The notes beneath the pieces were generated by a model. The model was not told where the DNA came from. It made no database searches and worked only from the letters and a program-made list of their open reading frames with translations. This document shows positions 52,345 through 52,500 of a stretch of 64,000 nucleotides of DNA, in pieces. This DNA is from Escherichia coli. Its GTDB lineage: Bacteria; Pseudomonadota; Gammaproteobacteria; Enterobacterales; Enterobacteriaceae. How positions within the stretch are numbered: the stretch's first letter is position 1; the number at the start of each line of letters is the position of its first letter. The stretch is taken from the NCBI RefSeq assembly GCF_046105845.1, contig NZ_CP151004.1; one strand, written 5' to 3'. The position numbers were made by a program, and so were the translations under genes.

Positions 52345-52500
52345 AAAAGGTTCGGGGGCAGGCCGGGTTTTCTCCCTCGCTCTGTAGGGAGAGGGCCGGG
52401 GTGGGGGTGATTGTTCGCACCGGTGCTGGTCTGTTCCCCTCACCCTAACCCTCTCCCCGAAGGGGCGAGGGGATGGTTCGTGTTAACGTTTAGTTTTATA
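52345..52500. repeat. GC-rich intergenic repeat element with mirrored CCCTC/GAGGG blocks
   Basis: ctccctcgctctgtagggagagggccggggtggggg and cccctcaccctaaccctctccccgaaggggcgagggg; it recalls a recurring E. coli intergenic repeat that I cannot name from memory. Confidence 0.45.

Follow-up and report, generated by a model that had tools for sequence, protein, structure and literature searches.

The GC-rich repeat in the convergent gap between uppP and cca is, judged by its sequence, an ordinary copy of the BoxC family, present as a back-to-back inverted pair, and this identification is secure. We consider it probable that this BoxC copy, in its palindromic B+A form, is a structure-prone element without a dedicated regulatory job at uppP/cca. 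The literature already describes the repeat, its occurrence in pairs and the instability of the loci that carry it.

The repeat lies in a 64-kb stretch of E. coli chromosome (hereafter the window) that includes plsY, folB and uppP (bacA), followed by the convergent genes cca and ygiM. The uppP stop codon is at 52337-52339 and that of cca at 52502-52504 (minus strand), and a simple scan for sigma-70-like promoters found none in 51900-52900. The features of the region are collected in Table 1.

Table 1. Features of the uppP/cca region of the window
Feature	Position	Strand	Sequence or basis
uppP (bacA) CDS, left neighbour	51515-52339	+	ORF list, RefSeq annotation of near-identical locus
uppP/cca convergent spacer, 162 bp, strain-variable	52340-52501		ORF ends; RefSeq names bacA, cca
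Small flanking hairpin, GAGAAAA...TTTTCTC	52342-52374		predicted in folds of both strands
Composite BoxC unit, ~110 bp: inverted type B + type A with conserved central spacer	~52367-52482 (soft edges)		
Left half: degenerate TM_ECO/BoxC type B (CCG second loop)	52374-52407	+	CCCTCGCTC TGTA GGGAGAGGG CCG GGGTGGGGG
Canonical G-quadruplex motif, four G-runs, in left half	52387-52407	+	regex scan
Central spacer at hairpin apex, ~29 bp	52408-52436		apex stem in predicted folds
Canonical G-quadruplex motif GGGGAGAGGGTTAGGGTGAGGGG, in right half	52436-52458	-	regex scan
Right half: type A with one stem mismatch ('A mm', TTA second loop)	52437-52471	-	CCCTCGCCC CTTCG GGGAGAGGG TTA GGGTGAGGG
cca CDS, right neighbour	52502-53740	-	ORF list, RefSeq annotation of near-identical locus

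A BoxC pair of the published type

The two symmetric GC-rich strings quoted in the initial annotation are present where it placed them (ctccctcgctctgtagggagaggg at 52372-52395 and cccctcaccctaaccctctccccgaaggggcgagggg at 52436-52472). Its description of the region as mirror-symmetric holds approximately within each half, where the G-blocks (GGGAGAGGG ... GGGTGAGGG) form near mirror repeats, but not between the halves, which are inverted (reverse-complement) repeats of each other. Searching the full text of the literature for the sequence turned up Holder et al. (2015, PMC4666352) and Kaplan et al. (2016, PMC5100583); two further papers contain the sequence only as a primer or as an entry in a quadruplex table. 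The family was called BoxC first, then PIT ('potential intrastrand triplex', Hoyne and Maher), and was named TM_ECO by Holder et al. (PMC4666352), who cite the envM paper (Bergler 1992) as the first description of BoxC; other literature named for the BoxC/PIT family comprises Bachellier 1999 and Hoyne and Maher 2000, 2002.

The TM_ECO pattern reads 5'-CCCTCNCCC N3-6 GGGNGAGGG N3 GGGNGAGGG, with TTA as the second loop in type A and CCG in type B (Holder et al. 2015, PMC4666352). The right half of the uppP/cca repeat matches this pattern exactly on the minus strand and the left half matches it with two mismatches on the plus strand, where 0.00 matches were expected by chance in either case (100 shuffles). 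The right half is also identical over 22 nt, and nearly so over ~40 nt, to a sequence in the K-12 gap between fabI (formerly envM) and ycjD, which carries ttcccctcaccctaaccctctccccagaggggcgaggggac and in which the site adjoining fabI/envM has the same 22-mer plus GGGGCGAGGGGAC; this fabI-ycjD site is TM_ECO no. 9 in Table 1 of Holder et al. (2015, PMC4666352). The same sequences have been described as the G-quadruplex-hairpin motifs HPG1 and HPG2 (Kaplan et al. 2016, PMC5100583). On its minus strand the right half contains the HPG1 sequence GGGAGAGGGTTAGGGTGAGGG, and the left half is of the HPG2 type (CC(G) loop), whose consensus form is GGGAGAGGGCCGGGGTGAGGG; the window copy is one base off (A to G), with GGGTGGGGG in the place of the GGGTGAGGG of HPG2.

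In K-12, five TM_ECO sites are inverted pairs, each composed of a type A and a type B motif (Holder et al. 2015, PMC4666352), and Kaplan et al. (2016, PMC5100583) describe motif pairs on opposite strands less than 50 bp apart. In the window, a plus-strand type B motif and a minus-strand type A motif, separated by 29 bp, make up a palindromic pair of this kind. The pair shares with the published family the motif, the intergenic habit, the multi-copy spread, the inverted A+B arrangement and a locus that varies between strains; it differs in lying at uppP/cca, a locus not occupied in K-12, and in the two substitutions of its type-B half relative to the pattern.

Compared with Rfam under a permissive cut-off, the region gave only far sub-threshold matches to models of animal and plant microRNA precursors, which reflect a generic long hairpin, and an Rfam scan of 12 related loci gave no match on the element. 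Unrelated Rfam matches in the fetched loci were the BjrC1505 sRNA in a Hyphomicrobiaceae MAG (L097, 1388-1521, minus strand) and the DUF3800-VI RNA in Asticcacaulis sp. YBE204 (L111, 925-978, plus strand).

Three mechanically called ORFs cross the repeat, 52411-52593 (+), 52294-52443 (-) and 52055-52420 (-), of 60, 49 and 121 aa. ORFs of this sort (e.g. 52411-52593 +) encode peptides such as PHPNPLPEGARG, and strings resembling PHPNPLPEGARG occur in ORFs over copies in other genomes (loci L006, L075 and L114 among them). ORFs through the repeat look spurious and are a likely source of false gene calls.

Copies across E. coli and the composite unit

The initial annotation had proposed membership of a dispersed repeat family, to be checked by a genome-wide search for copies, and the membership is correct: the repeat matches the published BoxC/PIT/TM_ECO motif, and of 5426 complete E. 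coli genomes 5407 have matches to its 113-nt core. The matches occupy 78191 places in total, the median genome having 16 and the richest 28, nearly all of them chromosomal (43 are plasmid-borne), and no annotated feature lies beneath the core matches among the matches listed. The window itself holds a single copy, as blastn with a small word size found no second one within the 64 kb. The word GGGAGAGGG is seen three times in the window against 0.21 expected; its match at 27993 was rejected as a second copy, since it belongs to an unrelated small hairpin between two minus-strand ORFs. That hairpin, TTTTCCCTCTCCCCATCCAGGAAGAGGGAAAA (27990-28022), lies in the 133-bp gap between the ORFs 26843-27913 and 28047-29480, and has the CCCTCTCCC word yet is no BoxC member.

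Full-length relatives at other loci, for example alx-sstT and gudD-barA, are 86-88% identical to the window copy, and the unit can be aligned over its whole length with five other E. coli loci (hrpB-mrcB, fepB-entC, ygfF-gcvP, alx-sstT and gudD-barA). An alignment of six copies (the window copy, four K-12 pairs and the gudD-barA copy) has a mean column identity of 86%. Both motifs, the ~29-bp central spacer and some 10 nt beyond each motif are common to the composite copies, the central spacer being conserved in four of the five other composites and shortened at hrpB-mrcB, and the 22-mer is invariant across the six E. coli loci. Because motifs, spacer and flanks are shared, the pair behaves as one ~110-bp unit. 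In K-12, by our count from the table of Kaplan et al. (2016, PMC5100583), the copies lie at 10 tandem, 7 convergent and only 2 divergent gene junctions, which makes the convergent uppP/cca gap a typical setting.

Folding of the repeat unit

The two halves can pair with each other. Between 52387-52407 and 52437-52457 complementarity reaches 81% over 21 nt, and 52456-52471 pairs with 52374-52389, so that together these arms form one long imperfect hairpin on either strand; a small palindrome, GCACCGGTGC, lies inside the central spacer at 52417-52426. Folded as RNA, the whole gap has predicted energies of -74.3 kcal/mol (z -2.7) for the plus strand and -64.1 kcal/mol (z -5.2) for the minus strand. 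For the 112-nt unit folded as DNA the z scores are -3.7 and -4.4 and no shuffle folded as well, and these shuffle statistics rule out a chance palindrome. With copies abundant and a stable hairpin predicted on both strands, neither of the grounds on which the initial annotation would have abandoned its proposal, a lack of further copies and of stable structure, applies.

The left half of the window copy has two private transitions, both of which leave G-U pairs on the plus-strand RNA only, which accounts for the lower plus-strand energy; alone, they are not evidence of strand-specific selection. The consensus hairpin of the six composite copies has 34 pairs, and its covariation term is +0.67; because nearly all of the pairs are invariant, covariation is uninformative in either direction about selection on the structure. 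In the small flanking hairpin, locus-specific bases after the uppP stop codon pair with the first bases of the repeat; this hairpin has no T-run behind it, and the scan did not report it as a terminator.

A regex scan found three canonical four-G-run motifs in the 64-kb window, two of which lie in the element, one per strand. The third, GGGGGCGGGTGGGCAGTGGCGGGG at 22837-22860 (+), is inside a long minus-strand ORF (22643-24184). The concentration of quadruplex motifs in the element raises the question of whether it is a structural switch, alternating between duplex, hairpin, G-quadruplex and intrastrand triplex and thereby regulating the neighbouring genes or replication, and circular dichroism and NMR did detect quadruplex, hairpin and triplex forms of the consensus sequences in vitro (Holder et al. 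2015, PMC4666352; Kaplan et al. 2016, PMC5100583). However, the stable triplex was seen in the isolated single strand, the double-stranded context gave only duplex, DMS footprinting in vivo gave no triplex signal, and the elements show no correlation with the function, orientation or distance of neighbouring genes (Holder et al. 2015, PMC4666352). Moreover, the left half of the window copy departs from the triplex pattern at two positions, and the long Watson-Crick hairpin predicted for the paired form would compete strongly with other folds. We therefore regard a switch as very unlikely.

No sign of a bidirectional terminator

The initial annotation had also suggested that the repeat acts as a bidirectional transcription stop, and here the evidence goes against it. 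The prediction of terminators on both strands that it called for gave, in a consensus scan of 51900-52900, no terminator-like site on either strand. On the plus strand the stem is followed by ATGGTTCG, on the minus strand by AGAAAACC, neither of which is a T-run. The T-run that the unit does possess, GTTTTC (52367-52372), is 5' of the hairpin on the plus strand, and reads as GAAAAC after the hairpin on the minus strand; a T-run 5' of the stem on the plus strand is the opposite of what a two-way intrinsic terminator requires. The element resembles bidirectional intrinsic terminators in being a GC-rich hairpin common to two convergent transcription units, but differs from them in having, on both strands, no A-tract before and no T-tract after the stem. 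Its stem of ~34 pairs is also far longer than typical terminator stems.

Published work on the family points the same way. Holder et al. (2015, PMC4666352) summarise the tests of Hoyne and Maher (2002), in which PIT elements showed neither promoter nor terminator activity, and they describe no effect of the elements on RNA polymerase or reverse transcriptase, with polymerase blockage in vitro only. By their account, family members lie in every orientation, and upstream positions relative to ORFs outnumber downstream ones. About three quarters of the genomes (~77%) are without the element at uppP/cca.

A broader form of the proposal is that the repeat serves uppP and cca either as a two-way transcription stop or as a hairpin protecting their 3' ends, doing the job that REPs do elsewhere. 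REPs can stabilise mRNA 3' ends. The position of the element, directly between two stop codons, and its replacement by REP arrays in other strains, both here and at gudD-barA (see below), are compatible with a 3'-end role, as is the very stable hairpin predicted on both strands; in K-12, BoxC sits at 19 junctions of which 7 are convergent, and a terminator role was raised as a speculation by Kaplan et al. (2016, PMC5100583). Protection of 3' ends comparable to that by REPs is possible and is the main rival to our reading, although it is unsupported; taking both roles together, we judge this explanation unlikely in view of the terminator scan, the misplaced T-run, the published tests and the many genomes that do without the element. 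The protein-binding site that the initial annotation offered as an alternative is possible, although no protein is known to bind members of this family.

Strain variation at uppP/cca and other loci

The uppP/cca spacer, surveyed with a query that spans the flanks, exists in several alleles. It measures 162 bp with the BoxC pair in the window, 180-181 bp with three REPs in K-12, 187 bp with REPs in F11, 89 bp with one REP in B771, and 79-80 bp with one REP in Nissle 1917 and GPEC874. The BoxC allele was found in 1259 of 5426 genomes (~23%; at least 80% of the gap query covered), NZ_LR778147 and O26/O103 strains among them, and the K-12-type three-REP allele in 2709 (at least 80% of its query covered). 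Between the window and K-12 spacers, alignment is confined to ~18 bp at the start of the gap and ~7 bp at its end, so that in the lineage with the BoxC allele a segment of ~140 bp (~52358-52497) stands where other strains have REPs. The REP consensus (a palindrome of the GCCGGATGCGGCG... type) is not in the window allele; it is the K-12 allele that carries REPs.

REPs (and BIMEs) resemble BoxC in being short, GC-rich, palindromic, dispersed intergenic repeats that favour gene 3' ends, and they fill the uppP/cca spacer itself in K-12, F11, B771 and Nissle 1917, but the sequences of the two families are unrelated. A second case is the gudD-barA spacer, which contains REPs in K-12 and a BoxC pair in WP8-S17-ESBL-08, with no target-site duplication visible. 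At both uppP-cca and gudD-barA, then, REP and BoxC-pair alleles of similar lengths swap between the same flanks, and there is no empty-site allele. This swapping may reflect chance, given the abundance of REPs, or a real overlap of niche.

The alx-sstT locus varies as well. At alx-sstT in MS7163, 75 bp have been lost exactly between two CCCTCTCCC direct repeats (L135 compared with L134), leaving a simple hairpin, which is a clean example of slippage-type decay. Downstream of alx in E. coli B / NEBExpress (L136), an unrelated stretch of 588 bp, which includes the GC-rich palindrome GGGGGTGCAGGGGGCGGCGGCGATTGGCCGCCCCCTGCGC, replaces the one containing BoxC. Holder et al. (2015, PMC4666352) reported that TM_ECO loci differ between strains far more than control intergenic regions do, and that palindromic sites are apt to become simple hairpins, the 'palindrome effect'; the allele replacement and the MS7163 deletion fit both this effect and the raised local variability.

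Distribution beyond E. coli and the question of mobility

Species-representative genomes were scanned with the exact 22-mer CCCTCACCCTAACCCTCTCCCC, which gave at least 120 loci (L006-L125). Among the matches listed, many copies are in cultured isolates, namely Pseudomonas sp. dw_612 (at least ~30 copies), Pseudomonas sp. ok272 and isolates of Asticcacaulis, Devosia, Mesorhizobium, Neorhizobium, Mitsuaria and Superficieibacter, and the 22-mer is also present in Azospirillum, in MAGs labelled Verrucomicrobia, Thermoflexales, Desulfotomaculum, Gastranaerophilales and Thermodesulfobacteriota, and in two archaeal MAGs (Micrarchaeota and Methanomicrobiaceae). The strict TM_ECO pattern accompanies 60 of the 127 occurrences of the 22-mer among the matches listed, and a loosely defined inverted partner lies within 160 nt in 27 of the same 127. 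The range reported earlier was 3610 copies in 262 proteobacterial genomes, with the family absent from Salmonella (Holder et al. 2015, PMC4666352). The non-proteobacterial matches would widen that range, if they are not due to contamination, which is possible as they come from MAGs.

In Pseudomonas sp. dw_612, where 30 loci (L021-L050) were compared from ~60 nt before to 160 nt after each match, the type-A motif forms the conserved end of a longer repeat (...GGGGACTGACCGAGGTGTTCTTGGAGCTACATCGACCTGAAA...CGAGTCGAACTCAGG...). An extension, ACTGACCGAG, is common to this repeat and to the E. coli BoxC copy at alx-sstT, hinting at shared descent rather than convergence.

These observations bear on the possibility that the repeat is a MITE-like element with inverted ends, moved in trans by an enzyme that recognises the motif, the uppP/cca copy being a lineage-specific insertion. 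The discrete ~110-bp unit with inverted halves, common to several loci, would suit such an element, as would its variable presence between strains, the multi-copy occurrence of the exact 22-mer in distant taxa and the extension shared between Pseudomonas and one E. coli copy. However, neither a target-site duplication nor a clean empty site is seen at uppP-cca, gudD-barA or alx-sstT, where the alleles are replacements or internal deletions, and no direct repeats border the six aligned copies. A search for a mobilising gene between close copies in the Contendobacter, Azospirillum and Asticcacaulis loci yielded, as far as inspection of the translations can tell, ORFs that look like transporters or metabolic enzymes and not like transposases. 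In addition, Holder et al. (2015, PMC4666352) saw no link between the family and transposons, phages or plasmids, in keeping with the 43 of 78191 E. coli places that are on plasmids. A MITE-like origin accordingly seems improbable to us, and no mechanism of spread was found.

A more speculative scheme, in which we place little belief, would take the ~110-bp composite as the intact form of a sequence-constrained element, spreading between lineages and recognised by a putative host or mobile protein, with single motifs as its decayed halves and with composites interchangeable with REPs in 3' gaps; the many copies of the exact 22-mer in distant taxa are compatible with it. If this were true, REP arrays and BoxC composites would compete for the same promoter-free 3' gaps in E. 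coli.

Implications

Our preferred reading remains that of a BoxC pair without a dedicated regulatory job at this locus, and from it we can offer a rough account of how the spacer behaves. Any transcript reading in from uppP or cca would contain a very stable long hairpin, and in its single-stranded state the DNA would have the capacity to form a cruciform, an intrastrand triplex or a G-quadruplex. This structural capacity would in turn expose the spacer to slippage, deletion and replacement. The element would do little harm in a convergent gap that has no promoter, and it probably persists there as a selfish or neutral repeat. The conservation of the motif is extreme, however, and may speak against neutrality, as a neutral repeat would be expected to decay faster; given how strictly the 22-mer is kept, some constraint, whether from structure, from a recognising protein or from a copying mechanism, is possible.

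Annotations should mark this stretch as a pair of BoxC/TM_ECO repeats and not as a terminator or an RNA gene, and the uppP/cca spacer, of which at least six alleles exist, is a useful marker that differs between strains. Beyond what has been published the finding carries little biological weight, since the paired form and the instability of the locus had already been described. It does bear on two older topics in the study of the family, the strict conservation of the motif and the manner of its spread.
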